A stretch of DNA of 64,000 nt from Candidatus Micrarchaeota archaeon. Lineage in GTDB: Archaea; Micrarchaeota; Micrarchaeia; Anstonellales; Anstonellaceae. Every line of letters begins with the position of its first letter. The stretch's first letter is position 1. The DNA is taken from contig JAOAJL010000001.1 of NCBI GenBank assembly GCA_026414185.1, positions 82,987 through 146,986 on the forward strand, given 5' to 3'. Under the pieces are notes generated by a model. That model worked only from the letters and a program-made list of their open reading frames with translations, was not told the DNA's origin and did no database searches. A program made the position numbers and the translations under genes. Shown piece by piece: positions 21,654 through 55,524 of this stretch.

Positions 21654-22436
21654 TTAAGCCCTCTGCCATTTCACACCAGCAGATTCAAGCTCACGAATCA
21701 GCTTTGAGCGCACCTCTCCTTTCATGCCTTTCCAGTCTATCATCGCGCCCAGAGGAGCCTCAGTGTTCTTTCCTATCACATCTTTCAGGCGACCTGCATC
21801 AAAGCCGTCCTTTTCAAGCGCGTAGCCGGAGATTATGTGCCCGAACGCCTCTTCTCCTTCAACTGCCTTTGGGCTGAACTTCGGCGCATAGTGGCTTCCG
21901 CCAAAACCGACATAGGCGGGCCAACTTCTCCTGTTGCGCACCGCCGCCACTATCGCCCTTGCGGCTATCTCACCCGCCTTTTTCATACCCCACTGCTCAC
22001 GGGTGCTTCCGATTTCAACAAACATGACGGGCTTTTCTATCGTGGGTCCGTGGTGGTCCGCCTCAAGCGAAACCTGCCAGCCGAGACTTTGGCGAGAAAG
22101 CATAGCAAGCTCCTGCACGGCAGCCTTCAGCCTTGAAGGCATCGCAATGTTCAGCGTCCTTTCTTTGCCTCCCAAACCAGCAGAGCCCCAATTGCCTGGC
22201 GTGTGGGCGGTAAAGCAGGGCTGGCCCGCTTCGCTTTTGTGCGTGCTTGCATAAATGTAATAATCCGCCTTGTGCGCAGGCTCAATCGTCACAATTTCCC
22301 CGCTGTATTCTGCCATGTCAAAGTCCGTTCCGCGCCAAAAGCCGCCCTCCTCCTCCATGCTTTCAATGGCAAGAATGGCGCCCTTTATGTTCCGGCTTGC
22401 CTCATTTTGCCTGGATATGACCACGAGAGGCCGCAT
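21654..22436 (-). CDS. dtdA: D-aminoacyl-tRNA deacylase, archaeal type (DtdA)
   Basis: Matches conserved DtdA blocks: HTPGNWG, LEADHHGPT, GGSHYAPK, IDWKG. Confidence 0.75.
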   Translation of the reverse strand: MRPLVVISRQNEASRNIKGAILAIESMEEEGGFWRGTDFDMAEYSGEIVTIEPAHKADYYIYASTHKSEAGQPCFTAHTPGNWGSAGLGGKERTLNIAMPSRLKAAVQELAMLSRQSLGWQVSLEADHHGPTIEKPVMFVEIGSTREQWGMKKAGEIAARAIVAAVRNRRSWPAYVGFGGSHYAPKFSPKAVEGEEAFGHIISGYALEKDGFDAGRLKDVIGKNTEAPLGAMIDWKGMKGEVRSKLIRELESAGVKWQRA

Positions 22437-22517
22437 GAAAATAGGGCTGCGGTAGAGGATATAATCCTTTTCAGCGGCGCAATCAGATTTTTAAGCTGGG
22501 CATGCAAATTTGCTCTC

Positions 22518-23717
22518 ATGGGCGATGAGCAGCTTATCCTTTTCATAGAGCGCTCCCGCCAGCGCGGAAGGACAGACGAACAGATAATGCGCGCTCTGCT
22601 TTCAGTCGGCTGGAAAAAAGAGCGAGTGGAGGCTGCGCTTGCCATGGTTTCCCAAAAGGAAGGCAAAAAACAGGCGCCTGCTGTCCCATCTGTGCAGCAG
22701 GAGGCACAAAAACAGCAGCAGGCTCCTAAAGCCGAACCTCAATTGCGAAAGCAAGAAGAAGGCGGGCAGCCGCAAGAAAAGAACGAAACGCAGGAAAGCC
22801 AGCAAAGCCTGCAACCGGCGCAGGCTGCGCAAAAAGCCGAAGGCAAGCCGCAGGAAAGCGCAAAAGCGCAGTCTGAGCAGGCAACTGTCCCTTCGCAGAT
22901 GCAGGCAGAAAGCCAAAGGCAGCCGCCCGCCCAACCCAAGCCGCTTTGGCCCTATGAAAAGGAAGGCGCACAAGGAGACCTTCTTGCTGCCGCCTACCCG
23001 AAAGTTTCTGACGAAAAGGAGGTGAAGAACCCTGCCTTTGAAAACCTTGAAAAAGCCTCCAAGCAAAAAGCCCTGCCCAAACTCATCCCCATCGCCCTTG
23101 CCACCCTCATCATCCTGCTTGGAGCCGCTTATTTCTTTCTTCCGGCTTCCGCAAGAGGCGCTCCCACAGCAGAAACCCCTTCAATTTCACCTCCTGCCCA
23201 GCAGCCTGCTGCCTTGCCGGCTGAGCATGCAAATGCCTCGGAAAAAGCCAAAAATTCCACCCAAAAACAAGGGCAGCCGGTCTTCCCAGCCAAAAACCAA
23301 ACCGCCCAGCAGCCGCCTGCACAAAAAGAAGAGCGGGAGCAACCGCCCCCAGAAAAGCCCAGCATTCCAGCCCCCCCGCCGCTTCCACCGCCGCCAGAAA
23401 CCAGCCCTGCGCCTAAAGAGCCGCCGCAAAACAACACGACAGCCGTTCAGGAGCAGGTTCACTTCAACAAGTCACGCTCATTTCAATGGGACAGGGGCTT
23501 GACTCCAAGAAAATTCTGCCGCGTCAACAACATGACTTTCTGGCGCGCGCACTACTCCGAGTTTTGGGGAGCGCAGTGCGTAACGGAGAAAAACAGGCGC
23601 GGAAACTCAACAGCAGAGGAGTTTGAGTCGCGCTGCACCTACCTTCCCTGCTGCTTCACCGCCCCCTCCTTGGAATACAGCTACTACTACGACAGCTTTG
23701 ACTGCGGCTATGAATGA
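22518..23717 (+). CDS. hypothetical single-pass membrane protein with Q/P/K/E-rich linker and Cys-rich C-terminal domain
   Basis: Start moved to MGDEQ at 22518; the upstream extension overlaps dtdA on the other strand. Order is a small N-terminal helical domain, about 170 aa of low-complexity QPKAE linker, one TM helix, a Pro-rich segment, then a C-terminal domain with 6 Cys and many Tyr. Confidence 0.45.
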   Translation: MGDEQLILFIERSRQRGRTDEQIMRALLSVGWKKERVEAALAMVSQKEGKKQAPAVPSVQQEAQKQQQAPKAEPQLRKQEEGGQPQEKNETQESQQSLQPAQAAQKAEGKPQESAKAQSEQATVPSQMQAESQRQPPAQPKPLWPYEKEGAQGDLLAAAYPKVSDEKEVKNPAFENLEKASKQKALPKLIPIALATLIILLGAAYFFLPASARGAPTAETPSISPPAQQPAALPAEHANASEKAKNSTQKQGQPVFPAKNQTAQQPPAQKEEREQPPPEKPSIPAPPPLPPPPETSPAPKEPPQNNTTAVQEQVHFNKSRSFQWDRGLTPRKFCRVNNMTFWRAHYSEFWGAQCVTEKNRRGNSTAEEFESRCTYLPCCFTAPSLEYSYYYDSFDCGYE

Positions 23718-24263: not shown

Positions 24264-24857
24264 ATGAGAAGCGCCGCCGCCATCGTGGCATTTTTGCTGC
24301 TTTTTTTCATTTCAGGTTGCGCACAGCGCACCATCCCTTCAGCCTGCGCCAGCAGCGAGCCTTCCAGGCTTGCAAACTGCATATACAACAACGCAGTGAC
24401 GGAGCAGAACCCCTATTACTGCTATTCTCTTGAAGACAAGCGGCAGCGCGAAATCTGCATGCGAGACGCAGCAGACCCGAACGCAAGAAAAGCCCTCCTC
24501 AACTCGCTTGCCTCTGAGCGCGAAGCCATCTTTGTCGCGCAGGAAGGCCAGGCGCACTCAAAGCAAGGGGGCAATTTTGAATCCCCCGAAGAAGCGGCGC
24601 CGCAAGCGCAGGCGGCAGAACAGAGCAGTTGCGCAGGTCTCATAGGCACTGCCCGCGACAACTGCTTCAAAACCGTCGCCCTTGAAAGCCAGCAAATAGC
24701 CTATTGCGAATCAATAAGCGACGCCACAATACGCAAAAGCTGCATTTCCGAAATAGCAAGGAAGACAAAAGACATACAGTCCTGCAAGACGCTTTCCCAA
24801 AAGGAGAACATAAACCTCTGCAACCTCTACGTGAAAGGCGACGAGCAGAAAGGCTGA
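24264..24857 (+). CDS. secreted Cys-rich lipoprotein-like protein
   Basis: Signal peptide with lipobox-like LFFISGC; 10 Cys in the mature part. Confidence 0.45.
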   Translation: MRSAAAIVAFLLLFFISGCAQRTIPSACASSEPSRLANCIYNNAVTEQNPYYCYSLEDKRQREICMRDAADPNARKALLNSLASEREAIFVAQEGQAHSKQGGNFESPEEAAPQAQAAEQSSCAGLIGTARDNCFKTVALESQQIAYCESISDATIRKSCISEIARKTKDIQSCKTLSQKENINLCNLYVKGDEQKG

Positions 24858-24915
24858 AAATCCAAAATACGGCGTTCATAAAGAAAGCTCCAAACAAAAA
24901 TGCAAAGGTGAGGGA

Positions 24916-25395
24916 ATGTTTCTTTTCCAAGAACAAGCACAGCGCGCACAAATTCGAATCCAAGAACAAGCACAGCGCGCACAAATTCGAAAAGTGTTGG
25001 ATTTAGCCACTTACATAAAGAATCAAATAAAAGATTCATTCAACGTAGAGAACATAAAAATTACGGTCACTGCCCAAAATCGAGATAAAAATGGAGAAGT
25101 CATCTCTTACAACCGATGCTACTCCGTTACAGTGGCTTATGATGAAAATAAAGTCAAGAATAAAGGCGTCTTAGTCAACAAAATAAATGCGGCTGTTGAG
25201 TCCTACATTCATATGTATTTCAAAAATACAGGAAATATCAAAATGTTGTCTCCCAAAGAAACAATGCCTGAAACGATAGAAAAACAAGACGCGATATATG
25301 TATATTCATATCCTTCCTCGGGCACGGCCAAAAATTTCCGAGGGGAAACACAATTCACCCTCCTTTATGCTTTTTACTCCGGCGAAAGAAAATAA
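24916..25395 (+). CDS. hypothetical protein, AT-rich orphan with internal tandem duplication
   Basis: 159-aa ORF in a segment of about 38% GC. The N-terminus contains a duplicated QEQAQRAQIR peptide encoded by a perfect 31-bp direct repeat. Confidence 0.35.
   Translation: MFLFQEQAQRAQIRIQEQAQRAQIRKVLDLATYIKNQIKDSFNVENIKITVTAQNRDKNGEVISYNRCYSVTVAYDENKVKNKGVLVNKINAAVESYIHMYFKNTGNIKMLSPKETMPETIEKQDAIYVYSYPSSGTAKNFRGETQFTLLYAFYSGERK
24929..24991 (+). repeat. perfect 31-bp direct repeat (caagaacaagcacagcgcgcacaaattcgaa) x2, separated by 2 bp
   Basis: Copies at 24929-24959 and 24961-24991, read directly from the sequence. Confidence 0.9.
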
Positions 25396-25403
25396 GCCTC
25401 GCT

Positions 25404-26195
25404 TCAAAACATCTCATCCGCCAGCTCTTCCCTGTCCGTAGGGCCGAAGAAGTCCCACCAGAAGCATTTTTTCATCTCTTCGCCCGCAAGCTGCTTCACA
25501 TCGCAGGAAAGCGCCCCGCCAACGATTACGGAAAGCTCCTTTGCCTGCTGTCTTGCGCGGCTCATTGCCTCCTCCTTCGTCAAGCCAGCTGCGGTTGTGG
25601 AGAGGTAGAAGACCACCTCAAGGGGCTTTTCGCCAGAGGTAAGCCTCTCAATCTGCCTGCCCCACATCGCAATTTCCCTGTCAAGCCGGGCAATCTCGTC
25701 GTTGTTCTTTGAGGAAGAGGAGAGCTTTGCCCTCCTACTTTCAGCCAAACTGCGCCTTGCCCTTATCTCTTCAAGCTCATCCGACAAGTCAAGCGGGCAG
25801 ACCATCGCAGTCAGCTTGAAAGGAAAGCCTGCCGAGGAAATTGCCTTCTCAAACATGCCTCCCATAAGCGCCTGCTGCCTTTCGCTTTTCTCAGAGGCGG
25901 ATTCATAGAGCCGAGCAGAAAGAAATGCAGTGGCAAGAAATGCGCCGTTTTTCCTGCCGACAACCAGGTCTTGCGAGGGCGGTATCTCAAAATTTCTTCC
26001 CGCTTCAACCACTCCTGCCCGTTTCGTAAGGGCTGGAATGAGCAGATAGCCGTATTTCCACAAGGCAAGCGAAAGCAGGAAGCACAGCGCCCCCGCTGCT
26101 GCCGCAGGCGCAGAGCCGAAAAAAACTGCCGCCGCAAGACAGAAAAATCCGCCGGCAAGAGCAAGAACGGTGTAAAGCCTGTTTTCACCTTCCAC
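25404..26195 (-). CDS. hypothetical membrane protein with cytoplasmic coiled-coil domain
   Basis: N-terminal TM pair (LYTVLALAGGFFCLAAAVFF, ALCFLLSLALW) then a helical domain. The ORF-track ATG at 26381 would overlap the pgk start by 125 nt on the opposite strand, so an in-frame GTG at 26195 is proposed. The start is uncertain. Confidence 0.4.
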   Translation of the reverse strand: MEGENRLYTVLALAGGFFCLAAAVFFGSAPAAAAGALCFLLSLALWKYGYLLIPALTKRAGVVEAGRNFEIPPSQDLVVGRKNGAFLATAFLSARLYESASEKSERQQALMGGMFEKAISSAGFPFKLTAMVCPLDLSDELEEIRARRSLAESRRAKLSSSSKNNDEIARLDREIAMWGRQIERLTSGEKPLEVVFYLSTTAAGLTKEEAMSRARQQAKELSVIVGGALSCDVKQLAGEEMKKCFWWDFFGPTDREELADEMF

Positions 26196-26256: not shown

Positions 26257-27447
26257 ATGAAAACCTTGAAGGACTTCCAGTTTGAGGGGAAAACCGCGTT
26301 TGTGCGGGTGGATTTGAACTGCCCTGTAGATGAAAAGACAAAGAAAGTGGAGCCATCGGAGAGGATTGCGGGGCACGCCAAGACAGTGGCGGCGCTTTCG
26401 GATAAGGGGGCAAGGGTGGTGGTGCTTGCGCACCAGGGCAGAAAAGGCGACTATGACTGCATATCCCTCTCGCAGCATGCCCTTCTTCTGGGCGATGCGA
26501 CAAAAAAGCCCGTGAAGTTTGTGGATGATGTCTGCGGAGAGAAGGCAAAGGCAGCCATCCGTTCCCTCAAGCCAGGCGAAATCTTGCTTCTTGAAAACGT
26601 CCGCTTCCTTGATGACGAGACGAAATACAAGACAATTGAAGAAAACGAGAAGGCAACAATAGTCCAGCAGCTCTCCCCGCTTTGCGACGTTTTTGTTCTT
26701 GACGCATTCTCCGCGGCGCACCGCGCGCAAGCCTCCATAGTGGGCTTCTACAAAAAGCCGGTGGTGGCGGGCTTGGTCATGCAGGCGGAGCTTGAAGCGC
26801 TCGCCAAGCTGAAAAACCCCAAAAAGCCCGTAGCCTTTGTCTTCGGCGGGGCAAAGCCTGAGGATTCAATAGGCATAATGTCCAACTGGCTTTCAGAGGG
26901 CAAGATTGACCATGCGCTTACTTGCGGGCTTTTGGGCGAGCTTTTCCTTGTCGCTTCTGGAAGAGAGCTTGGCAAGACAATAGAGCTTCTGAAGGAAAAA
27001 AAGGCGCTTGACTATCTGCCGCAGGCAAGGGAGCTTCTCTCAAAGCACAAAAGCCGCATTCTCATTCCCGAGGACGTCGCAATTGACTTCAACGGAAAGC
27101 GCAAGGAAATCCCGTGCCATCAGCTTCCATCCAACCACTTGATTTGTGACATAGGCGCGAAGACCGCCAAAAAATACGCAGAGGTCCTTTCCGGCGCAAA
27201 GACCGTGTTGATGAACGGGCCTGCCGGCATGTATGAAAATCCGGAGTTTGAGGCAGGCACAAGGTCGCTGCTTAAGGCAATAGAGAAGTCAGGCGCGTTT
27301 TCAGTCATGGGCGGCGGGCACACCATATCCGCCATTGAAAAGTTCAGGATAAACAAAAAGAAGTTGGGCTACGTTTCCCTTGCAGGCAAGGCGCTCATAG
27401 AATATCTTTCAGGCGCACAGCTGCCAGGCGTAAAGATACTGCAGTAA
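26257..27447 (+). CDS. pgk: phosphoglycerate kinase
   Basis: N-terminal DFQFEGKTAFVRVDLNCP, with GGAKPEDSIG and GGGHT motifs. Start at MKTLKDF. Confidence 0.85.
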   Translation: MKTLKDFQFEGKTAFVRVDLNCPVDEKTKKVEPSERIAGHAKTVAALSDKGARVVVLAHQGRKGDYDCISLSQHALLLGDATKKPVKFVDDVCGEKAKAAIRSLKPGEILLLENVRFLDDETKYKTIEENEKATIVQQLSPLCDVFVLDAFSAAHRAQASIVGFYKKPVVAGLVMQAELEALAKLKNPKKPVAFVFGGAKPEDSIGIMSNWLSEGKIDHALTCGLLGELFLVASGRELGKTIELLKEKKALDYLPQARELLSKHKSRILIPEDVAIDFNGKRKEIPCHQLPSNHLICDIGAKTAKKYAEVLSGAKTVLMNGPAGMYENPEFEAGTRSLLKAIEKSGAFSVMGGGHTISAIEKFRINKKKLGYVSLAGKALIEYLSGAQLPGVKILQ

Positions 27448-27454
27448 GCCTGCT

Positions 27455-28831
27455 TTACTGCTGTACTGAGCCAGTTCTTACCAGCAGAGGCTCAATCTTT
27501 ATTGCACTTACGACTTCTTTGCCACTATCTCTTGCCTCCGCGCCGTTCTCAGTTGCAACAAGCGAATGGATATCATCTCCCTTCCCATCCATCTGCACCT
27601 TCATCATGAACATACCGGGCAGATAGAACACAGCCAGATTGTGGTTTTTCGCATCCACTGAAGGCACTTCCACCGCGCTGAATATAGTTCCTGACTGGTT
27701 GATGGCAAAGACATATTTGGGGTCGCGCGGATTTTTGGGATTGGCATCATAAGGTGCGCCAAGAAGGTTGTAATAGCGGGCGTAATCGCCGACAATAGGG
27801 ACCTCCACCACTCCGATTCCGTTTCTGGCTATAACAACGTGCGGGATGAAAGTTTCGCCGCCCCTCTGCACCTTTTCAAGAGGCTTTACTATTTCGCTTG
27901 ACTCCCAGTTGCCTGGAATATTGCAAAGCTCCGAAAGCTGCGATGGGCTGAATTTCAGATAAATGTCCCGTCCAGCCATCTCGCGCGTGTCCTCTATTAT
28001 ATTGAGCTTGAGGGAAGCCCCGTTTCTCTGGAAGCCATCCCCCTTAACAGAGGACTCTATGCGCATGCCTTCCTTCCCCACGCCGTCATAGGTAGAAGCC
28101 GTCAAAACAGGTTTCTGGCCGTCAAGCACTTGGAGCCTTCCATTCTCCCCGAAAGAGAAGTTCCAATCTTTCGTGGAGCTTCCCGCCCCAAATGTCGTAG
28201 AAACCAGAAGCGGATTGGTGTGCGGCACGTAATAAAGCCGGTAGGTACCCCCGCCGCTGTGGGTAACCCAATAGCATCCATGTTCGCCAATGCCTGCAAT
28301 CGCAGGCCGCTGAATCCCGTCTTTTTCGCTGTGGAACCTGTCTTCATAATCCCCCCTGTAGACAACAGGCACTTTCATTGCAGAGTAAATGAATGTTTTT
28401 AGCTCTGCATCAGCATAAAGGACAATTACGCCGTCCCTCCCAGTTATAAGGGAGACTATCCCAAGCCCGTCAATTTTCGCTTTTGTGGTCTTTATGTGAA
28501 GCTCCTGCACAGTTGAAATTGTCCGGTAGGTCCGGTCAAAACCAATGATTCCCAGGTCCTTGTAAATATCCTGCAAAGTTATAATCGCCGCCTTTCTACC
28601 ATATTCCATCTTTACCATATTGGATTCTTTCACTACGCCGACTTTCAGGCTGTCTTCCGTTTTGTTCTGCCTGGGCAAATCTTCTTTCATGGGCAGAATG
28701 CGCTCAATCACCGCTCGTTTTTGGAGAGCGCATGTGTTCAAATCCTTACCCTGCTTTGGCTGGGCGGACAGAAGAACCGTTCCAGCCCAAAGAGCAACAG
28801 CCGCGTTCTTAACCTTTCCCATCTCAACCAC
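27455..28831 (-). CDS. hypothetical secreted protein
   Basis: 458 aa with an N-terminal signal-like hydrophobic stretch (AAVALWAGTVLLSA). No recognisable domain, and probably beta-rich. Confidence 0.45.
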   Translation of the reverse strand: MVEMGKVKNAAVALWAGTVLLSAQPKQGKDLNTCALQKRAVIERILPMKEDLPRQNKTEDSLKVGVVKESNMVKMEYGRKAAIITLQDIYKDLGIIGFDRTYRTISTVQELHIKTTKAKIDGLGIVSLITGRDGVIVLYADAELKTFIYSAMKVPVVYRGDYEDRFHSEKDGIQRPAIAGIGEHGCYWVTHSGGGTYRLYYVPHTNPLLVSTTFGAGSSTKDWNFSFGENGRLQVLDGQKPVLTASTYDGVGKEGMRIESSVKGDGFQRNGASLKLNIIEDTREMAGRDIYLKFSPSQLSELCNIPGNWESSEIVKPLEKVQRGGETFIPHVVIARNGIGVVEVPIVGDYARYYNLLGAPYDANPKNPRDPKYVFAINQSGTIFSAVEVPSVDAKNHNLAVFYLPGMFMMKVQMDGKGDDIHSLVATENGAEARDSGKEVVSAIKIEPLLVRTGSVQQ

Positions 28832-28837
28832 CCAACT

Positions 28838-29638
28838 TTATTTTATAGTTTCAAGCGTCTCAAGCCCCTCAGTTCTCTTTCTTTCCTCCTCAAGCTTCCG
28901 CTCCAAGTCAGCTATCTTCTTAAGGCGCGCCTCTGCAGTCTTTTCAAGCTCGTCAAGAGTCTCCAAATCCACTTCTTCCTCAAGCCCAAGCTCGCGTGTT
29001 TTTTTGCGCACAAAAGCAACAGAATCCTTTATTCTTGTTGCTTCCTCCTTGCTTGCGTACTTGAGATCCTCAGGCTCTATTTCGGAGAGTTTTTGGTAGG
29101 CGGCAACGACGCTGTTTTTTTCTTTCTGAAGCTTATCCTTGGCTTCCTTCTCAAGCAAAAGCTGCCTTTCCTTTTCAGCCTTCTGCTTTTGCAGGCGCTC
29201 CTCCTGCGCCCTTTTTTCCGCCTCAAGCCTTTGTCTTTCCTCCTCTGCTTTCTTCTTTTCCGCCTCCTCCCTTACCTTCTTTTCCGCCTCACGCTCGCCT
29301 TGCTCAGCCTCCTTCTTCTTGACAACGGGGGGAATGCTTTGCAGAGTGTCCTTTTGGGGCGGCACCTCGCCGCTTCTTTTAACAGAGTCGGAAATGCCGC
29401 TTTTTTTCTGCGAATCCTCAATATTCTCCTTTGCCCTGCCAAGCAGCGAGTCTATAATCCGCAAGCGCTGTTCAAAAGTCGTGTCTTTGAGCGCAGCCCT
29501 GCCAAATTCTCGGGAAAATGCAAAATGCCTCTCAGCCTGTAATTCCGCGCCGCTGCCTGGCGCCTTTAGCCCAAAATAGGCAACGGTGCCTGCAAGAATC
29601 AACCCTGCGATTTTCTTTTTCACCTGCCCACCCTTCAT
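28838..29638 (-). CDS. hypothetical membrane-anchored coiled-coil protein (E/K-rich)
   Basis: N-terminal TM (IAGLILAGTVAYFGL) followed by about 200 aa of charged heptad-like sequence (EEERQRLEAEKRAQEERLQKQKAEKE...). Confidence 0.4.
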   Translation of the reverse strand: MKGGQVKKKIAGLILAGTVAYFGLKAPGSGAELQAERHFAFSREFGRAALKDTTFEQRLRIIDSLLGRAKENIEDSQKKSGISDSVKRSGEVPPQKDTLQSIPPVVKKKEAEQGEREAEKKVREEAEKKKAEEERQRLEAEKRAQEERLQKQKAEKERQLLLEKEAKDKLQKEKNSVVAAYQKLSEIEPEDLKYASKEEATRIKDSVAFVRKKTRELGLEEEVDLETLDELEKTAEARLKKIADLERKLEEERKRTEGLETLETIK

Positions 29639-29791: not shown

Positions 29792-29799
29792 TTTATAAA
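29792..29799 (+). promoter_or_regulatory. putative TATA box (tttataaa) upstream of the giant-protein gene
   Basis: Lies 36-43 nt upstream of the GTG at 29835; GAGGCGGTGG SD-like sequence in between. Confidence 0.3.
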
Positions 29800-29834
29800 C
29801 AAAAGATAGCACAATAAACAGAGGCGGTGGTTCG

Positions 29835-32800
29835 GTGTTCCTCTTTCAGGTAAAACTTACTGATTTTTCAGATAAGCTGCTTCCCCAATTTGAGCAACTT
29901 TTCAAAGACATGTTCAAGGGCGGCAAGAAGCCCACAGCAGATGAAATTCGCGAATTTTTCAAGAGGGTGGGCGAGCTTTACAAGCAGATGATCAAAGAAG
30001 ATGAGGAATCCCGCAAGTCCAGTGGCGCGCACCACAAGGATTTCTACGCAGTTTCAGCTTTTTGCTACAATGCCTATTCTTGGCTGAAAGACAACGCACC
30101 ACACATGGATTTTCTAAGCGAATCCGATCGGTCGGAAATCGCCTATCAATCAGGAAAGATGATGGAAGACATCAAGCCGACGGCACCTCAAAAAATCAAG
30201 GAGCTTGGCTTTGATTCCGCGGCATTTGAAGAAAAAAGCAAAAAATTCCAGTTTTTCCATGAGGAGGGATATTCCCTCGCACCAAAAACGGAGCAAGTAG
30301 TGCCTGTCACCGGATATTCATACAAAGACTTGGAGGAGCAATTCCTTCAAATCCATATGAACCTAAAACACTATGATCAGGCCACCTTGCGCTCATTTTA
30401 CGAACGCGTCTTGGGGCTTTATTCTTCCATCAACAGACAGTCCCTCTCGGATGTGGAAAATGCAAAGCAGATTGCATTCTGCATAAATGCGCTTGAGTGG
30501 CTGGCGGAGGCATTTGGAACTGCCGGCTTGAAAGGACTGGCGGCAGAAGCGACAAACAAATCCAACGAGCTTAAAAATCTCTCATCCAGCGTGCTTGAAA
30601 AGGAAAAAAGGCACTACGCCCACTACTTTGCCGCCGTCTCACATCTTGTCGTGCAGCTGCAGAGCGGCAAGCAGGCGTTTCTATTCAACCAAAGAGGGGT
30701 GGAGCTTCTTGTCAAAATGCTTGACGATGCTTCCGAGAAAAACAGGACTACGGTTGCAATAGCCTTTCCATCGACGGAGCTTGCCGATATATTCCGAACC
30801 CAAGTGCTCCCCCACCTTCCCTTCGCGAAGATAAGTGATGTAAAAGTGAAAAACGGCGACGAATACACCAGCTTCAACCTGGCCGGCAAGACAGTCGTGT
30901 CTTTCAGTTGCGACTACGACCCTGCGAACCAGCCAAAGCCGTATGTGCAAGTGCCAGCTGAAAAGGAAGAAATCTCACAGGAGGAAGAAATAGACATAAA
31001 AAAGACCAAAAAAGAGCAAACCGAACGGCTCCCCCCCGGCATAACGGAAGAAGAAAAAAAGAACCTCTTGCAAAACGTTCAGCAAACGCCTGTTCTGGAA
31101 AGCAGCCGCAGAGGAGAGTCTAACATAGAGGAAGTTGCAGGTCTTTACTATGCCCTTCGTTACCAAGGGCGAAACCCAGAAAGCAAGGAAGTGGTGCGTT
31201 CAACAGTCATCAAGGTCCTGGAGCTTCTTGCCGCCCACTACGGCTATCAGGCAGGCAAGGACTACCAGCACATAGAAGACTTCGTCAAGACTGAGGATGG
31301 CAAAAATTTCCTGCGGAACGTCCGGGACAAGATAACAAGAATAATCGGCTCTGCGAGCGTGGAAGTCTTCTATACCGGAAACAACTACAAAGCATATCGC
31401 AACGCCCTTGTGAGCAATTGGAACGACGCAGCTGGGCAGCGCGCAGAGATGGCGCTTGACGCCTTTAACGAACTTCTGATTTCAGCCGGGCTTGAGGCGG
31501 TCCACGCAGAAACAACCATGCGGCTGCACGTCTACCAGGACATAGACGAGAATCTCAAAAACAGGCTTCTCAACGACAGCTACGTTCCAGAGGACATGAA
31601 AAACTGGCTGAGAAACACCTACAAATACGGCGACGGGCAGAAAAACCTCACGGACCTCATGAACTACCTGAAAGAGCACGACAAGAGCGGAACTACATAC
31701 CAAAAGCTCCTTTCCTGCTGCAGCGTTTCAACCGATGAGAACGGCAATGAGGTCTACACCCTCACCAATCCCGCACAGATGAACGTCTACTTTTCCAGAA
31801 TGCCAAGTGACACTACGCTGCGCGGCAAGGGCAACAAAAATGGGCTGAGAAACGAATCCGACCCCGACAATATGCTTGTGAATGCGATCGAAGAGGGCTT
31901 CACTACACAGGGCTCATCACGCTCAGTCGCCTTCAACGTTTCTTTCAGCGGCGAGCTTGGGATAAGACAGGAGAATATCACAAGCAAAACATACAAGCCA
32001 GGAGAAACAATCTCCGTGAAAATAGAAGCGCCATACAAGATTGAAGGGGAGAACGTTGATTTCATGCGCGGAATGAACGAGAATGGCGTTTCTGATTACG
32101 GGAAGGTAGTCGTTGAAATATATGATGAGACAGGCAAGAAGCTTGACTGCCCGGTTAAGATTGTCAAGAAGCAGGACGGCTATTATGCCGAATTTACTCC
32201 GCGGCAGGAAGACTTGAAGGTAGAAACAAGCGAAAAAAAGCTTGAGCCGAAGAAGACAAAGAGCAAAGACGGAGAAACCCAAGTGACGAAAGAGACAGAA
32301 TACACCAAGAAAACCCACGGCAATTTCTCAATAGTTGCATATGCCATATCTGAAGACGGCAAGCTTAACTCCGGCATGACGGGTCAGACGCTAAAGGTTG
32401 AGCACACCGAAAAAATTTCCAAGAAGGAATATGAAAAAATCAAAGAAGAGAAAAAGCGTTCCGTAGAGGAGCCATACCCAGTCACATACCCGATAAATAC
32501 GAAGTTCCAGTTTTTCACCACCGGCTTTGATTTCAGCTCAAACACTTCCATCCTCTACGGCCAAAAATATCTTAGTGAATTCAGAAATGCAATTATTGAA
32601 GCAAATAATCTTTTTCAAAAAGGGAAGATTGATGAGGGGCTGCAGATACTCAAAAGCCGCCTCTACAACGAGGCAAATCCAAACGACCCTAACACCCTTT
32701 TCGGCAAGCTGAAAGCCCTTATCGAAAACCCCCCCACGCCAGGAGAGCAAAAATTGGCTCAAAACTGGCTGCTCGCATTTGGAAAAGACATGAACAAGAT

Positions 32801-33695
32801 GGAAGAGTTTTTCAAGAATCTTGTGGCAGGCAACTTTGCTTCAGCCTACCGGCTCATGGCGGACGGAACAGAATTGAAAAGGAATACGAACCTCGTGACA
32901 ACCGAGCTTTCGCTGACTGGCTTTGATGCCATCCTCGGTTTTCTCCAGTATTCTGTAAACACTTATCAGGCAAAGCTGAACATCAACATCTCAAAGGAAA
33001 AGATACTTGGCATGCGAGGCATGATAAATCTTTACGTCACCTACGAGCACTCAACAGGAACATTCACCTTCAGAGACTTCCCACTTTCCGAACATGAAAG
33101 ACAAGCAGGCAACATAACGGTGATGGCAGTGGTGTTTCCAGCGGAGCAGCTTGCGGCATTCGTAACAGGAGGCATCTCCGCAGGGCGCTACAAGACGGTT
33201 TCGCTTGGGAAAACCGATATTGCCTGGATGCATGGATTCAACACCAGTATAGGCATCCAATATGATTTCCTATCAGGCTTGCTCAAAGGGCTGCGGACGA
33301 AAATCGAAACTCTATACGAGCACTACTTTATCAAGAACGAGAAAGGAGAGTGGGTAGACACCTGGGCCCTCACCCCTTCTATGCGAATCACCGCCCAGGA
33401 CTATCTTGGCGGGTGGTTCAAGCCCTATTGGGAAGGAAGCTTCAAAGTGACTGAGAAGAACTGGAAGGAGCGCTTTTATGTCGGAACAGGAGAGATCGGA
33501 GCAATGCTGCGCCCATTCTACAATACTGACCTTGCGGTCTTGAAACACATCAACATAGATCTGGCAGGTAGCATCACAACAGTAAGGAACCAGCCTCCGC
33601 ACTATGGCCTTAGAGCGTCCTTGATTATCCCGATCCTTTCAGGCGAGGATGAAATAAATGCCCGGCAATCTTATATGACGAAGACGAAGGGCTAA
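29835..33695 (+). CDS. giant hypothetical protein (1286 aa), no signal peptide, no recognisable domain
   Basis: Uninterrupted 3.86-kb ORF with lower GC (about 47%) than flanking housekeeping genes. N-terminal two-thirds helical; the C-terminal third is rich in Gly/aromatic alternation, suggesting a beta-rich fold. Confidence 0.5.
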   Translation: MFLFQVKLTDFSDKLLPQFEQLFKDMFKGGKKPTADEIREFFKRVGELYKQMIKEDEESRKSSGAHHKDFYAVSAFCYNAYSWLKDNAPHMDFLSESDRSEIAYQSGKMMEDIKPTAPQKIKELGFDSAAFEEKSKKFQFFHEEGYSLAPKTEQVVPVTGYSYKDLEEQFLQIHMNLKHYDQATLRSFYERVLGLYSSINRQSLSDVENAKQIAFCINALEWLAEAFGTAGLKGLAAEATNKSNELKNLSSSVLEKEKRHYAHYFAAVSHLVVQLQSGKQAFLFNQRGVELLVKMLDDASEKNRTTVAIAFPSTELADIFRTQVLPHLPFAKISDVKVKNGDEYTSFNLAGKTVVSFSCDYDPANQPKPYVQVPAEKEEISQEEEIDIKKTKKEQTERLPPGITEEEKKNLLQNVQQTPVLESSRRGESNIEEVAGLYYALRYQGRNPESKEVVRSTVIKVLELLAAHYGYQAGKDYQHIEDFVKTEDGKNFLRNVRDKITRIIGSASVEVFYTGNNYKAYRNALVSNWNDAAGQRAEMALDAFNELLISAGLEAVHAETTMRLHVYQDIDENLKNRLLNDSYVPEDMKNWLRNTYKYGDGQKNLTDLMNYLKEHDKSGTTYQKLLSCCSVSTDENGNEVYTLTNPAQMNVYFSRMPSDTTLRGKGNKNGLRNESDPDNMLVNAIEEGFTTQGSSRSVAFNVSFSGELGIRQENITSKTYKPGETISVKIEAPYKIEGENVDFMRGMNENGVSDYGKVVVEIYDETGKKLDCPVKIVKKQDGYYAEFTPRQEDLKVETSEKKLEPKKTKSKDGETQVTKETEYTKKTHGNFSIVAYAISEDGKLNSGMTGQTLKVEHTEKISKKEYEKIKEEKKRSVEEPYPVTYPINTKFQFFTTGFDFSSNTSILYGQKYLSEFRNAIIEANNLFQKGKIDEGLQILKSRLYNEANPNDPNTLFGKLKALIENPPTPGEQKLAQNWLLAFGKDMNKMEEFFKNLVAGNFASAYRLMADGTELKRNTNLVTTELSLTGFDAILGFLQYSVNTYQAKLNINISKEKILGMRGMINLYVTYEHSTGTFTFRDFPLSEHERQAGNITVMAVVFPAEQLAAFVTGGISAGRYKTVSLGKTDIAWMHGFNTSIGIQYDFLSGLLKGLRTKIETLYEHYFIKNEKGEWVDTWALTPSMRITAQDYLGGWFKPYWEGSFKVTEKNWKERFYVGTGEIGAMLRPFYNTDLAVLKHINIDLAGSITTVRNQPPHYGLRASLIIPILSGEDEINARQSYMTKTKG

Positions 33696-33706
33696 GAGGG
33701 AGTTGG

Positions 33707-36499
33707 ATGAATCGGAAGATTGCGGCACTGGCTACTTTGTGCATTCTATTCGGGCTTCTCTTTTCAGCGCCAGTCCCATTTACATTCCGGCTTGGAACTA
33801 GCCCAAATTTGAATTACACATATATAAAAAGTGAGATGGAAGCAACCCCCGCAATCTCAGCTCCTCAAGTAATATGCGCAGGAACGCCCATCCAGCTGAC
33901 ATTGAATGTAAATTCCGGCTGGAGGTATTCCACGTTTGAGGGTGGAACTGCAAGCGGCGCAATTAACCAAGGCGAGCTTATCTCAAATTACAATCAGGCA
34001 AGCGGGGTTTATCCTATAAAATGGTCAACAAAAACAGTGCAGTCCGGACTTCGCTCTTATCAGCAATATTTCGAGTGGCATCCGACCAACACTTGGGAAG
34101 GAATGCTTAATTCTTGGGGATTAGGTGATTATCCGCAAAGCACGGAGAAGGAAGTGGGCATAAGATACCAGCTGCCAAACAACCAGCCCGGCTATTTTAA
34201 TGGAAAATACCGGGCGTATGTTGGAATGATTTGCGCAGGCACGGCATCCATTGTTGTTGATGGAAACAGCATCAGCTCGGAGGAGTACTTGGGCAGCTCA
34301 ATAACAAAAACACACACATTCAGTGCAGGTCAGCACAGCCTCGGGGCGACTCTGTATATAGACGACTGCGCAGTTCCGATCCGCAACATACTAAGCAACC
34401 CTGAAAGGATATTTAACGTATGGACGACGATAGACTACAACTTCCACCCAACTTTTACAGCAACAAACCAAAACATCTTCGTATTAGAAAATTTCCTGTG
34501 CGGGGAGTTGCCGATTTCAAACCAGTGGGTAAGCAACCCCAACCCGGCTCCAAGCGCGCAGGTTTCCTTCCGCTTTGACCTGTCCAATCCTTTTGCCCGA
34601 GACATAAGAATAAACTCAATATCTCTCTCACCGCAGTCTTCGCCAGGCTTCACCAACTTCAATGCAGGACCGGCAAACACAGTAATCCCACCTGGGCAGT
34701 CAAGGCAATTTACGGGAAGTGTCAATGTTCCGCCATCCCCCGGAAGCAAGACGATGTACGTGGATGTTTCATTTGACCCGGTAAATACGCAGTGCGCGCA
34801 GACTGGCTGTGCAAGCAACGCGCGCTTTGTCTTTACCATAAACATTCCCGCCCCCTCCCAAAAGCCAGACTACATCCCCCTCATCTCCACCACAACTGCC
34901 TACGTAGGAGAGCAATTCACCGCGACGATAATAACCCGCAACCAGGGCAACCGCGACTGCGAGAACCAGACGCAGACGAACTACGAGTTCAACGGAGCAA
35001 ACCAGGGCTTCTTCAGCGTCCGACCCCTTGCTGCAGGCGGAGACCAGCAGGCAGACAGCCGCAATTTCACCTGCCCGTCAATACAAGGAAGCTACCCCCT
35101 GGCAGCAACGGCTGACGCCACCTTCAAATGCGATGAGAGCAACGAGAGCAACAACTACCTGCAAGTGCAGGTCAACTGCATTCCGCGCCCCCTTCTCCCA
35201 CCGGTTTCATGCACGCTCTCACCCAATCCAGGGGGAACATTCGTCCTTGGAGCAAGCGGCACATTCACCGCGGCTTGCCGTGACATAAACAACGCCCCCA
35301 CTTACTGCCCGCAGCTTTCATGGACAAGCACAAGAGGCACTATGAGCCCGCAGACCACGCAAAACGGCACCAGCAACCCGCAAAGCGTATTCACAGCCGC
35401 AAGCGTGGGGGCAGGCGAAGTGCGCGCCACTGCCGCCAACTTCTTCTGCGCCTCTCCAATAAGCGTTATTTCCTCATTTGCAAACCTCACTTTAGCTTGC
35501 AGCCTCGTAGGGCACAGCCCGTATTTCTTCCCAGGGGAATCCGCGCAGGTCCGCGCAGACTGCCTTGGAAGCGGAGAGACATGCCCGGCTCTTTCATGGT
35601 CAACAACCATAATCCAGGCAAGCATGAACCCGCAGACCACTCTTCCTGGACCGTCGCCCCGCTTTTCGCTTTTCTCAATTGCGCCCTCCGCGCCAACCCC
35701 GCAGGCAGGAACAATCAGGGTGCAGTGCGCAAACCCGGAAGAATGCAGCGCGACGTGCGATGTGAATGTGAATCTCTATCCGGTTCCAAACAGGCTTGTC
35801 TGCTCGCTTGAAAACCGCACGCAGGTTCCGCCAAACCTCTTTTCCGCAAACGACTGGAGCTGGGTGCGCGGCAGGTGTTACTCCTTTGACTCCGAAACCG
35901 CCTGCCCAAACCTGACGTGGTTCACAAGAGACCAGCCAATCCCCAACAGCTACTTTGAGCCAAACCCGACGCCCCAGCAGGTCGGGCCTCTGACTAACTT
36001 CTCCACCCGCGATGTGCCCCCGCCATTCCCAAGATACGGATTTATTGACGCAAGAAGCGCAAACCCGGCAATCCCTGCCATCGCCTGTGAGGCAGCAATC
36101 AACATCAGCGTCGTCCCAGTGATTGGGCCAAACTACCAAATCGTCCTTCTCAAACCCTCAAAAGTCCTTGCTTTGCAAGGGGAGAGGGTGAAAATAAGCA
36201 TCTGGACCAGGAACGTGGGCAACCTGCGGGCGCAAGGGCAGTCGCTCACGCTGACAAGGGTATTGCCTGAGGATTGCCTGCCCGACAGGTATGTCGTCCC
36301 TCCGCTCATGCCTGGGGAAACCGACACCCACAGCCGCTATGACTACGAATGCCCATGCACAACTGTCGGTCTGCACCGGATAGTCGCAGAGGCAAACGCA
36401 GACAGAGCCATATCTGAGACAGACTATTCCGACAACAACAGAACCGCGGTTTTCTACTGCGGAAGCAACTACACCCTCATCTGCCCTGACTACGTTTAG
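33707..36499 (+). CDS. secreted multi-domain surface protein with CARDB-like domains, adhesin-like
   Basis: Signal peptide MNRKIAALATLCILFGLLFSAPVP. Two or more CARDB-like modules (TIITRNQGNRDCE..., ISIWTRNVGNLRAQGQ...DYSDNNRTAVFYC), many Cys, and repeated NPQTT-containing segments. Begins 11 nt after the giant gene. Confidence 0.55.
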   Translation: MNRKIAALATLCILFGLLFSAPVPFTFRLGTSPNLNYTYIKSEMEATPAISAPQVICAGTPIQLTLNVNSGWRYSTFEGGTASGAINQGELISNYNQASGVYPIKWSTKTVQSGLRSYQQYFEWHPTNTWEGMLNSWGLGDYPQSTEKEVGIRYQLPNNQPGYFNGKYRAYVGMICAGTASIVVDGNSISSEEYLGSSITKTHTFSAGQHSLGATLYIDDCAVPIRNILSNPERIFNVWTTIDYNFHPTFTATNQNIFVLENFLCGELPISNQWVSNPNPAPSAQVSFRFDLSNPFARDIRINSISLSPQSSPGFTNFNAGPANTVIPPGQSRQFTGSVNVPPSPGSKTMYVDVSFDPVNTQCAQTGCASNARFVFTINIPAPSQKPDYIPLISTTTAYVGEQFTATIITRNQGNRDCENQTQTNYEFNGANQGFFSVRPLAAGGDQQADSRNFTCPSIQGSYPLAATADATFKCDESNESNNYLQVQVNCIPRPLLPPVSCTLSPNPGGTFVLGASGTFTAACRDINNAPTYCPQLSWTSTRGTMSPQTTQNGTSNPQSVFTAASVGAGEVRATAANFFCASPISVISSFANLTLACSLVGHSPYFFPGESAQVRADCLGSGETCPALSWSTTIIQASMNPQTTLPGPSPRFSLFSIAPSAPTPQAGTIRVQCANPEECSATCDVNVNLYPVPNRLVCSLENRTQVPPNLFSANDWSWVRGRCYSFDSETACPNLTWFTRDQPIPNSYFEPNPTPQQVGPLTNFSTRDVPPPFPRYGFIDARSANPAIPAIACEAAINISVVPVIGPNYQIVLLKPSKVLALQGERVKISIWTRNVGNLRAQGQSLTLTRVLPEDCLPDRYVVPPLMPGETDTHSRYDYECPCTTVGLHRIVAEANADRAISETDYSDNNRTAVFYCGSNYTLICPDYV

Positions 36500-36577: not shown

Positions 36578-37237
36578 ATGGCTAATCTTTTCAACCTGCC
36601 ATTTATGAGGAAAGGCGACGGCTCTTCCCAGTCCGGACAGCCAGGAGGCTCAGGCCAGGCTTCGCCCGAGCCACCAGAACCTGAAGTTTCCGAGCAGGAG
36701 CTGCGCCTGCGGCTTTACAAGCTCATAATTGAGCGCTACCGTGACATGATTGAGGACTGCGAGCGGAAGACGGTGACGGATTTGAAGGGACTGATAGCTC
36801 CCAACAGCGAGCCGATTGCCAAGATAAGGGATTCCATAATCTCGGATTTCCACCCCTATATCTTTGAGCAGCATTTCCCAGAGGCGTCAAAGATGGCTTT
36901 TTCCTATGTCTCTTCCTTCCGCACAATCTCCCCGCCTGTTTCTTTCTGGCTGACATTCTCAGACATGCAGGAGCTTATGGCTGGAGATGAGATAGACAAG
37001 TCAATCCTTCTGTGCTCGCTTCTCCGCTCCCTTGGCTGCGAAAACGCCAAGGTGCTCGTGACGGATTCAAAAAAAGCCTACGTGCTCTTTGAGCACCAGG
37101 GCAGAAGCTTTGTGGCAAATCACTCCCAAAAGGAGCTTTCCTCATATGAAAGCAGCCAGCAGGCGCTCTCCTCCCTCTCAGGCAAAGCCCTTTATGCGTT
37201 TAACGATAAGGAATATGAAGACTTCCAAGAATCTTGA
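36578..37237 (+). CDS. transglutaminase-like / papain-fold putative cysteine peptidase domain protein
   Basis: Candidate Cys-His-Asp arrangement (ILLCSLLRSLG ... AYVLFEHQG ... ) after an N-terminal disordered G/S/P/Q region. This is an inference from motif spacing only. Confidence 0.4.
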   Translation: MANLFNLPFMRKGDGSSQSGQPGGSGQASPEPPEPEVSEQELRLRLYKLIIERYRDMIEDCERKTVTDLKGLIAPNSEPIAKIRDSIISDFHPYIFEQHFPEASKMAFSYVSSFRTISPPVSFWLTFSDMQELMAGDEIDKSILLCSLLRSLGCENAKVLVTDSKKAYVLFEHQGRSFVANHSQKELSSYESSQQALSSLSGKALYAFNDKEYEDFQES

Positions 37238-37947
37238 AATCCACTCCGCGCGGTGATTCCATGGATTCCTCTGAAAAGCACGTTGACAGCAAGGTGAAGC
37301 TGGTGTGGTTTGCCCCCACAGCAATCGCCATCGTGTTCATCTGGCTTGCCGCTTCCCTTTTTTATGCGGTCCTGATGCCCGATGGCTCCATAGCAGGGCT
37401 TTCAGACCTCGCCTTCGCCGTGCTTTTTCTTCTTGCCATTCTGCTTCTTGCCGGGCTTCCCGTCTATCTGTGGCTTGAGCTTACCTACCGCAACCTCACC
37501 TACCAGCTCACCGAGAGGGAGATAGTCATCCGCGAGGGGGTTCTTGCCAGAAAAACGACGGTAATTCCCTACGACAAGATACAGGATATTTCCTCTACCC
37601 GCAGCCTTTTTGAGAGGCTCGTGGGGCTTGCAACGCTTGAAATAGAGACTGCCGGCAGCTCGCGCACAGCCTCAGAAACCCTGCTGCCCGGAATCGCAAA
37701 CAAAGACGAGTTCATAAGCGAGGTGATGCGCAGGGTGGAAAGCACAAAGCCAAAAGAAGGAGCGTCCCAAAAAGAGCACCAGCCAAGTCCGTCCGAGGCA
37801 CTCCTCTCCGAGATTCTGAAAGAATTAAAAACAATTTCGCTCAAACTGGACAGCTTGTCCAAGGAATCCCAAAAAAGACCAGCCCTAAAGCCTGAAAGGA
37901 CAGGCGCCTCAATATTTGAGGAATATGGGCAGTTCAAAAAGAGGTAG
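37234..37947 (+). CDS. bacterial-type PH domain (bPH_2/YdbS-like) membrane protein
   Basis: Two TM helices then TYQLTEREIVIREGVLARKTTVIPYDKIQDI...LATLEIETAGS, characteristic of bPH_2. Start overlaps the upstream stop (ATGA). Confidence 0.55.
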   Translation: MKSTPRGDSMDSSEKHVDSKVKLVWFAPTAIAIVFIWLAASLFYAVLMPDGSIAGLSDLAFAVLFLLAILLLAGLPVYLWLELTYRNLTYQLTEREIVIREGVLARKTTVIPYDKIQDISSTRSLFERLVGLATLEIETAGSSRTASETLLPGIANKDEFISEVMRRVESTKPKEGASQKEHQPSPSEALLSEILKELKTISLKLDSLSKESQKRPALKPERTGASIFEEYGQFKKR

Positions 37948-37951
37948 ATAG

Positions 37952-38125
37952 ATGGTCAGCTTTTCAAAATACGAGCTTGCAAGGCTAATTGGCGCTCGCG
38001 CCCTGCAGCTGTCCTATGGCGCGCCCCCACTTGTTGAGGTGAAGCCAGGCTCAACTGCGATAGATGTTGCCAAGGCTGAGCTTGAAATGGGCGTGATACC
38101 TCTTGTCGTTCTTCGGCAGGCTTAG
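37952..38125 (+). CDS. rpoK: DNA-directed RNA polymerase subunit K (Rpo6/RpoK)
   Basis: 57-aa ORF not in the ORF track (under 60 aa): MVSFSKYELARLIGARALQLSYGAPPLVEV...IPLVVLRQA matches the conserved Rpb6/RpoK core. Confidence 0.6.
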   Translation: MVSFSKYELARLIGARALQLSYGAPPLVEVKPGSTAIDVAKAELEMGVIPLVVLRQA

Positions 38126-54329: not shown

Positions 54330-54434
54330 GGACGGCTTTTGGCTTTCCGAAACAATTAAATAGGAGTATCGCAACTATCTTCGGAGCCGAAAAAAGGGAG
54401 ATTAGGGCTTTTGCCGGCTTTCAGAGGTGTTGGG

Positions 54435-54851: not shown

Positions 54852-54856
54852 TTCTG

Positions 54857-55159: not shown

Positions 55160-55178
55160 GGCGGAAGGAGGGGATTTG

Positions 55179-55520: not shown

Positions 55521-55524
55521 AAAG

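Follow-up and report, generated by a model that had tools for sequence, protein, structure and literature searches.

We analysed a 64-kb stretch of archaeal DNA (the window), which lies on a 158-kb contig of a Candidatus Micrarchaeota metagenome-assembled genome, and focused on two adjacent genes of one locus. Both are annotated publicly as "hypothetical protein" (tags N3E51_00645 and N3E51_00650). The first encodes a very large protein, here called the giant, and the second encodes a multi-immunoglobulin (Ig) surface protein with CARDB domains, here called the CARDB protein; the two genes are spaced by 11 nt. An earlier note made from the sequence alone (the original prediction) had given the same coordinates, sizes and gap, which were confirmed on the window sequence. 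It had also considered that the giant might be a frameshifted pseudogene. Neither open reading frame (ORF) contained an internal stop codon and full-length homologues exist for both, so that neither gene is a pseudogene. The two genes and the signals around them are as follows.

29792-29799, forward strand: TATA-like box TTTATAAA, 36-43 nt 5' of the giant start
29823-29830, forward strand: Shine-Dalgarno (SD)-like sequence GGCGGTGG
29835-33695, forward strand: giant protein gene, GTG start, 1286 amino acids, TAA stop
33696-33702, forward strand: SD-like sequence GAGGGAG, directly 3' of the TAA stop of the giant
33707-36499, forward strand: CARDB multi-Ig surface protein gene, ATG start, 930 amino acids
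36511-36516, forward strand: T6 run, 12 nt past the stop of the CARDB gene

The arrangement of these signals was that expected of a single transcription unit, as the original prediction had proposed. A box similar to the TATA-like box was found at equal distance in relatives, and the GGTGG core of the SD-like sequence was kept 5' of the giants in other lineages. The GAGGGAG sequence fills the 11-nt gap and is consistent with translational coupling of the giant and CARDB genes. The T6 run resembles an archaeal oligo-T terminator and is followed by an AT-rich, TATA-like stretch 5' of the next gene, which encodes a transglutaminase-like (TG-like) protein. In every lineage, the CARDB gene was separated by 1-11 nt from the gene that precedes it, which was the giant gene in all lineages with a fused giant. 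Taken together, the signals and the spacing show that the giant and CARDB genes form a putative operon.

To place the locus in its phylogenetic context, related lineages were gathered by genome and metagenome scans and by gene-context look-ups. The gene order was constant, reading pgk ... giant - CARDB - TG-like - (rpoK) - rnhB - nre, in at least 11 related Micrarchaeia lineages (L001, L004, L007, L008, L009/L012, L010/L014, L011, L013, L015, L016 and the P0018 locus). Two clear metagenome homologues of the CARDB protein lie on contigs that also carry pgk, one or more large domain-less proteins, a protein of approximately 220 amino acids, RNase HII and Nre, and the large proteins 5' of CARDB on these two contigs were giant homologues (BLASTP E = 5e-43 and 9e-11). 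No integrase or transposase domain was present in the neighbouring genes tested, and no mobile-element genes adjoined the pair. Searches for viral, plasmid-like or defence signatures (PHROGs, BFVD, IMG/VR, PADLOC) found none for either protein, and the scan of IMG/VR viral contigs revealed no relatives of the pair. The original prediction had described the pair as a compositionally distinct island, to be abandoned if the genes proved syntenic in relatives. Since the presence/absence comparison found the pair syntenic in at least 11 related lineages, this description fails in the sense of foreign DNA. The best reading is that the pair was not imported and has been inherited vertically at a fixed position in the Micrarchaeia clade.

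The base composition of the locus was compared with that of the window. The mean GC content of the window was 0.532, and the flanking genes measured 0.50-0.55, not the roughly 60% assumed previously. The giant gene (0.479) is indeed below its flanks, and no 3.9-kb stretch of the window has a lower GC content; over its full length, the CARDB gene (0.536) equals the background, with a value of 0.48 in its first 1 kb and 0.57 in the remainder. GC at third codon positions (GC3) was 0.58 in the giant and 0.58-0.605 in the pair, compared with 0.61-0.64 in the flanks. Because the GC3 of the giant is near normal, its GC deficit sits mostly at codon positions 1 and 2, in keeping with a protein rich in Lys (9%), Glu (9%) and Asn (6%); the low GC is modest and mostly reflects amino-acid composition. 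Tetranucleotide and compositional profiling revealed a real anomaly, which covered approximately 27-35 kb rather than 29.8-36.5 kb, with the tetranucleotide distance peaking at 28-34 kb. The anomaly takes in two upstream divergent genes, leaves out the 3' third of the CARDB gene and coincides with the unusual amino-acid composition. A horizontally acquired, compositionally foreign two-gene island draws on this peak and on the low GC of the giant, and it is very improbable in view of the synteny, the near-normal GC3, the agreement between the GC of the pair and that of its locus in several relatives, the lack of adjoining mobile-element genes and of viral or PHROG relatives, and the restriction of the family to Micrarchaeia. 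No tRNA gene was found in the 64-kb window with ARAGORN, which likewise speaks against an island.

The most striking property of the locus was its variability. Compared with the window, the flanking proteins of related lineages were well conserved, with sequence identities of 69-79% for PGK, 67-75% for RNase HII, 57-63% for Nre and 51-60% for the TG-like protein, while the identities of the giant and the CARDB protein were 19-33% and 22-41%, respectively. Between lineages, the giant was 16-38% identical except in one lineage pair (63%), and the CARDB protein was 22-49% identical. The same pattern was evident in a trio of close relatives (L004, L013 and L014), in which RNase HII was 92-94% and PGK 86-88% identical, the giant 19, 19 and 63%, and the CARDB protein 46, 34 and 49%. 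Thus L004 shared only 19% identity in the giant and 34-46% in the CARDB protein with its two close relatives, against 86-94% in the flanks of the trio.

The boundaries of this variability were sharp. Nucleotide similarity to every relative ended at 27,440-27,453, where the pgk stop codon lies (27,447), and restarted at 36,700-36,850, inside the TG-like gene; within the block, similarity was confined to one islet, shared with L001 and located at the first CARDB domain. For the close trio, variability ended on the 3' side inside the last third of the CARDB gene. As similarity is lost from the pgk stop codon on, the variable block also holds two orphan genes at 27455-28831 and 28838-29638. The block coincides with the compositional anomaly described above. 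To judge from these alignments, the region of approximately 27.45-36.7 kb is a fixed-position hypervariable cassette with sharp edges, in which homologous but extremely divergent alleles appear to replace each other, a pattern that matches a replacement-type hypervariable surface locus and not foreign DNA.

The giant has few relatives. Word-indexed homology searches, whether with the giant itself or with a 16-sequence profile of its family, returned the query alone and missed the family, which was recovered by an exhaustive HMMER scan of 1.84 billion protein representatives. Among these, the family comprised 16 cluster representatives of 601-1286 amino acids, in clusters of 1-3 sequences, and all named members were hypothetical proteins of Micrarchaeia metagenome-assembled genomes. 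The giant showed no Pfam match above threshold, with sub-threshold noise only (YtzH, GH65_N), and Pfam, NCBIfam, PHROGs and PADLOC gave nothing for it, no nuclease, ATPase or sensor domain being detected. One family member matched the Pfam Filamin repeat (E = 6e-5) in the region of the β-sandwich described below. Neither the family profile nor a C-terminal profile yielded a meaningful match to PDB sequences. The giant had neither a Sec-type N-terminus nor a clear transmembrane helix; its best 19-residue Kyte-Doolittle window scored 1.56 and fell inside predicted β-strands. The view that the giant lacks a signal peptide, a transmembrane segment and any placeable motif is therefore upheld. On the basis of these searches, the giant appears to represent an undescribed family restricted to Micrarchaeia.

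The ORFs remained intact, at 930-1286 amino acids, and the order of domains was kept in spite of the sequence divergence. In three loci (L001, 597 amino acids; L008, 621 amino acids; and the P0018 locus), the C-terminal module, which comprises a helical bundle and the β-rich region, was encoded by a separate ORF of 527-621 amino acids between the genes for the N-terminal part and the CARDB protein. As the module is fused in some lineages and split in others, the two parts of the giant are joined by a Rosetta-stone link.

To obtain structural information, the giant was modelled by AlphaFold2 with the family alignment as two parts, the N-part (residues 1-865) and the C-part (residues 866-1286), for which the mean predicted local distance difference test (pLDDT) scores were 76.7 and 67, respectively. 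The N-part model revealed, in order, a disordered N-terminus, a helical region, a disordered acidic/basic linker, an α/β core and an Ig-like sandwich. The features of the giant are as follows.

29835-29849, forward strand: N-terminal pentapeptide M-F-L-F-Q, disordered in the model (pLDDT 36)
29850-30299, forward strand: lineage-specific helical insertion of approximately 150 amino acids, a weak duplicate of the next helical hairpin (AFCYNAYSWL versus AFCINALEWL)
30300-30938, forward strand: helical region with a small α/β unit, residues 156-368, pLDDT 80-95
31047-31904, forward strand: α/β core, the best-conserved large region, residues 405-690, with the motifs GSAS-x-EVFY-x-G-x-NY, NW..A..RA and SRS
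31923-32426, forward strand: Ig-like β-sandwich, residues 697-864, with a Lys-rich loop specific to the window
32532-32885, forward strand: helical bundle 5' of the barrel, residues 900-1017, pLDDT 85-93
32967-33692, forward strand: predicted meander β-barrel of approximately 12 long antiparallel strands, residues 1045-1286, pLDDT 55-79

The insertion was absent from all other family members, which explains the length of the window giant (1286 amino acids versus approximately 1100). The models agree with the earlier view of a helical N-terminal part and a β-rich, barrel-like C-terminal third. The term "domain-less", which had been applied to the giant, holds for Pfam but not for the models, in which clear domains are present.

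The Foldseek program was used to identify proteins with structural similarity to the two models. With residues 1-865, the best PDB match had an E-value of 0.19 (small sandwiches) and BFVD gave nothing below E 0.03; the α/β core (residues 405-690) matched no fold in either database. With the C-part, the best 50 PDB matches were all bacterial outer-membrane barrels with E-values from 5e-4 to approximately 1e-2, including BtuB, FadL, BamA, EspP, FhaC, FapF, OprB and BrkA. The top target-normalised template-modelling scores (TM-scores) belonged to 12-strand barrels, namely FapF (0.50), EspP (0.43) and BrkA (0.43). Most of the predicted barrel strands showed dyad hydrophobicity, and Cys was absent from residues 866-1286. 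The C-terminus of the giant is thus predicted to form a barrel of approximately 12 strands that resembles bacterial outer-membrane barrels.

The extreme N-terminus of the giant was conserved to an unexpected degree. Across the family, residues 1-5 showed a pairwise identity of 80%, compared with 15-26% for every other region; the giants open with MFLFQ, and variants with V, I or L are rare. This conserved N-terminus confirmed the start of the window giant at GTG 29835. The synonymous codons of MFLFQ varied between lineages (TTC/TTT, CTC/CTT/CTG and CAG/CAA), so that the constraint acts at the peptide level, and an RNA-level cause of the conserved start was ruled out. The MFLFQ string had no occurrence in the searchable literature.

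A second gene that starts with MFLFQ lies 5 kb 5' of the giant and encodes a small orphan protein unrelated to it. The gene and its counterparts, a family of 112-159 amino acids, are located as follows.

24916-25395, forward strand: 159-residue orphan, starts MFLFQ
L004, 192-530: counterpart, starts MVFLFQ
L013, 3516-3917: counterpart, starts MVFLFQ
L015, 2445-2852: counterpart, starts MVFVFQ
L001, 2402-2809: counterpart, starts MFIFD

The small gene was always found between a lipoprotein-like gene and either a Zip gene or a conserved gene for a protein with two transmembrane helices. In the window, it occupies a hypervariable gap of its own (24,858-25,403) between conserved genes, and nucleotide similarity was lost exactly there. 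By our own rough estimate, the chance expectation of an MFLFQ start among the ORFs of the approximately 265 kb examined is at most 0.02. The orphan may belong to the same system as the giant, and we infer that MFLFQ could be a short linear motif, common to hypervariable proteins of this clade, that is recognised during sorting, export or assembly. A duplication of the 5' region was also considered as the origin of the shared start and was ruled out, as the upstream DNA of the small gene and that of the giant differ.

The CARDB protein is of a more familiar kind. It matched Pfam CARDB (PF07705) with 54.4 bits against a cutoff of 22.7 (E = 1.5e-14) in two stretches, of which residues 387-485 were the best, and PF07705 was also found in the homologues P0002-P0005. 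Its features are as follows.

33707-33775, forward strand: Sec-type signal peptide or N-terminal anchor, MNRK followed by a 17-residue hydrophobic core (residues 5-23)
34865-35161, forward strand: first Pfam CARDB domain, residues 387-485, site of the nucleotide islet shared with L001
35210-36106, forward strand: three Cys-rich Ig-like modules of approximately 95 amino acids each, residues ~502-800, Big_2-like by eye and without Pfam support
36119-36451, forward strand: C-terminal CARDB-like domain, residues ~805-915, with a conserved Cys-containing C-terminus, site of the 3' variability boundary in L004/L013/L014

The N-terminal stretch was the only one in the protein with a Kyte-Doolittle score above 1.9, and it was kept in 8 homologues. 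The NCBI annotation starts the gene at Met44 (33836), which gives a protein of 887 amino acids that is 43 codons shorter and lacks the signal peptide. The 930-residue start is supported because the SD-like GAGGGAG lies 5' of it and the N-terminus is conserved in the 8 homologues, and the start annotation of this gene is corrected here. Alignment of the CARDB proteins revealed a conserved N-terminal domain with invariant Cys residues, variable modules and a conserved C-terminal CARDB-like domain, and the number of CARDB/Ig-like modules differed between lineages. The window protein contained 30 Cys and no C-terminal anchor. Across lineages, the proteins contained 26-35 Cys, 3-5% Lys plus Glu (K+E) and 35-41% Ser, Thr, Asn or Pro, which is an extracellular type of composition. 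The signal peptide, the two CARDB stretches, the many Cys and the lack of a membrane anchor had all been read correctly in the original prediction. These features show a predicted Sec-type, disulfide-rich string of CARDB/Ig-like modules that would be anchorless once the signal peptide is cleaved.

To understand whether the pair has high similarity to any known system, we compared it with several classes of surface proteins. In the Micrarchaeon Mia14, strain-specific CARDB-fused secreted proteins have been proposed to act at the interface between cells (Golyshina et al. 2017, PMC5498576), and the CARDB half of the pair thus belongs, as a new member, to a kind already known. The CARDB protein shares with the CARDB/PKD surface proteins of Mia14 the Sec signal, the CARDB modules, the Ig-like strings, the lineage specificity and the proposed role at the cell-cell interface. 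In contrast to the Mia14 proteins, its gene is coupled by 1-11 nt to an upstream gene of the giant/barrel set without a signal peptide, its locus is fixed in position and not on a transferred island, and no β-propeller or PKD Pfam domains were detected. Another large envelope protein of the same phylum is the Micrarchaeota surface-layer (S-layer) protein SLP_Mh, which is approximately 100 kDa in size, belongs to Pfam PF05123 and has an N-terminal signal or transmembrane segment (Gfrerer et al., bioRxiv 10.1101/2021.04.28.441871). Neither protein of the pair matched PF05123 at E <= 1, and S-layer protein identity was therefore ruled out for both.

The architecture of the giant was similar to that of type V secretion proteins (autotransporters and TpsA/TpsB), as it has a large N-terminal part with an Ig-like domain, a helical segment and a C-terminal predicted barrel of approximately 12 strands. 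The barrel module is fused or separate, as in autotransporters and two-partner secretion, respectively, and the barrel region lacks Cys. There were also clear differences. The giants start with MFLFQ followed by polar residues and have no Sec signal, and the split C-terminal ORFs likewise have none. No Pfam or NCBIfam match to Autotransporter, ShlB, POTRA or TPS was found in the window giant or the 16 family members. Furthermore, the organism is an archaeon without a known outer membrane or BAM machinery, and the N-terminal tag of five residues is of a different kind. The giant appears to resemble type V secretion in architecture only, and membership is not supported by this comparison.

Replacement-type hypervariable surface loci include O-antigen and capsule loci and the "metagenomic islands" of Haloquadratum, which encode cell-surface glycoproteins. 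Such loci share with the present one the conserved flanks, the sharp boundaries, the divergent alleles at one position and the surface-exposed products. They differ in that the alleles described here stay homologous, with the same gene order and architecture, and in that the present locus involves neither glycosyltransferases nor any other gene content that varies.

Cells of DPANN archaea are attached to those of a host, and few of the proteins that establish and control this contact are known. Against this background, the interpretation that we favour, with about an even chance of being correct, is that the locus is an operon of the envelope or host interface that is inherited vertically and shaped by diversifying selection and allele replacement, in which the CARDB adhesin works with the giant and the barrel gives membrane or envelope association. 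In such a scheme, the barrel module would let the giant serve as an anchor or conduit associated with the membrane or envelope. The CARDB adhesin, which has no anchor, would dock on the giant through its own conserved N-terminal and C-terminal domains, and the two proteins would jointly mediate contact with another cell (the host) or be targets of viruses. Host contact or virus targeting would then drive the diversifying selection and the allele replacement. MFLFQ, common to the giant and to the small hypervariable protein 5 kb 5' of it, would act as a tag that is recognised in sorting, export or assembly. The earlier view of the pair as an adhesin-like candidate for cell contact, without prior description, also holds.

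Several observations weigh against this interpretation. The barrel was modelled with moderate confidence (pLDDT 55-79, E 5e-4 to 1e-2, TM-scores <=0.5), the hydrophobic faces of its strands are weakly to moderately so and include charged residues, and its loop lengths lack the alternation of short and long seen in classical outer-membrane proteins. No comparison between C-terminal sub-types by hhalign was significant, and the barrel is for this reason not claimed as homologous across the family. Micrarchaeota are reported, for a cultivated Micrarchaeon, to have one membrane and an S-layer without an outer membrane (bioRxiv 10.1101/2021.04.28.441871), which leaves no obvious site for an outer-membrane-type barrel. 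Sec and Tat signals are lacking in the giant and in the separate ORFs for the C-terminal module, and the composition of the giant is cytoplasm-like (K+E 12-18%, compared with approximately 18% in PGK). Fast divergence alone is compatible with diversifying selection and with relaxed constraint alike.

Some of these observations would be accommodated if the two genes were neighbours that are transcribed together and their products had no mechanism in common, the CARDB protein being a generic S-layer-associated protein and the giant a cytoplasmic scaffold, with the barrel a soluble β domain or an artefact and the divergence a consequence of weak constraint on a large, low-complexity-prone protein. 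We regard this explanation as possible but rather doubtful. The missing export signal, the K+E content together with the few Cys, the moderate confidence and weakly hydrophobic strand faces of the barrel, and the finding of no relatives of known function all agree with it. It accounts less well for a giant whose variability exceeds that of its exported partner (19% identity in the giant, with RNase HII at 93%), an unusual trait in a cytoplasmic housekeeping scaffold that every lineage retains at full length, or for ORFs that stay intact at 930-1286 amino acids with their domain order kept despite the divergence. The tight coupling to the CARDB gene in all lineages also speaks for more than proximity, and an N-terminal tag that is both conserved and exposed suggests that the giant is specifically recognised at some step. 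A locus for antiviral defence or virus interaction would share the extreme, allele-like divergence and the sharp boundaries; here the CARDB protein would be a virus receptor or decoy shaped by arms-race selection and the giant, which has a predicted pore-like barrel and no export signal, a membrane-perforating effector similar to those of abortive infection. As PADLOC found no match for either protein, no nuclease, ATPase or sensor domain was detected, and the locus stands at the same position in all lineages found, whereas defence systems are typically patchy and mobile, we consider this explanation quite improbable.

An extension of the envelope-operon interpretation is that the locus encodes a Sec-independent surface-display or host-contact system, analogous and not homologous to autotransporter or two-partner secretion. 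The barrel would insert in the own or the host membrane, export or anchor the N-terminal domains of the giant and tether the CARDB protein, and (M)FLFQ, as a new tag for archaeal sorting or export, would mark a small set of hypervariable clients. We regard this extension as unlikely; if true, it would be the first β-barrel-based envelope machine in a monoderm archaeon. In another Micrarchaeon, cryo-electron tomography revealed an unidentified barrel-shaped complex below the S-layer that docks a host nanotube (PMC11329633). The extended system would be a candidate for this complex; a link between the present locus and the complex is pure speculation.

The locus is a concrete candidate for the host contact of DPANN archaea, as it occupies the same position throughout the lineages found in the clade and its evolution resembles that of a surface antigen. 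One of the two coupled proteins is a recognisable adhesin, and the other represents an undescribed family in which approximately 700 N-terminal residues lack a relative by fold in PDB or BFVD; barrels of the type predicted for its C-terminus are regarded as exclusive to the outer membranes of bacteria and organelles. The MFLFQ start could be a new archaeal sorting signal. Under a conservative reading, the locus would be useful as a marker of strain-level diversification in Micrarchaeia.

The genes in the neighbourhood of the pair are as follows.

24264-24857, forward strand: 197-residue Cys-rich protein with a lipoprotein-like N-terminus (FFISGC), 36-47% identical in relatives, no family match
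25404-26195, reverse strand: conserved protein of approximately 263 amino acids, ~70% identity, two N-terminal transmembrane helices, no Pfam or NCBIfam match
27455-28831, reverse strand: 458-residue orphan with a signal-peptide-like N-terminus, in the hypervariable block
28838-29638, reverse strand: 266-residue orphan with an N-terminal hydrophobic anchor followed by a Glu/Lys-rich coiled-coil-like region, in the hypervariable block
36578-37237, forward strand: TG-like protein, 219 amino acids, conserved at 51-60%, with a weak sub-threshold match to a transglutaminase/CEP76 peptidase-like fold
37234-37947, forward strand: bPH_2 (bacterial-PH-domain) membrane protein
37952-38125: rpoK (Rpb6), 57 amino acids, next to the bPH_2 gene

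The two orphans upstream of the giant are divergent from it in orientation. Positional analogues of the 458-residue orphan, with 534-560 amino acids and an N-terminal signal, were found in L004, L008 and L010, and those of the 266-residue orphan in L004, L008, L010 and L016, in each case without detectable sequence similarity; neither orphan had an analogue in L001, L007 or L009. Downstream of the pair, the TG-like gene has an AT-rich promoter-like stretch of its own and lies outside the operon. Its product contained an invariant AGDEIDKSILLCSLLRSLG, which places Asp-Glu at the expected position of the catalytic Cys, and the protein may be a pseudo-enzyme. The bPH_2 gene was found between the TG-like gene and rpoK in the window genome only and, as it has no counterpart in any related locus, is a lineage-specific insertion. 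At 25404-26195, a mechanical ORF call of 325 amino acids that overlaps pgk is probably over-extended.

Elsewhere in the window, ORFs without a Pfam match, of 768, 504, 573, 247 and 401 amino acids, were located at 7218-9524 (reverse strand), 22203-23717 (forward strand), 49269-50990 (forward strand) and 53586-55703; these may be further lineage-specific or variable genes. A second low-GC patch (0.47-0.48) was observed at 53-55 kb.

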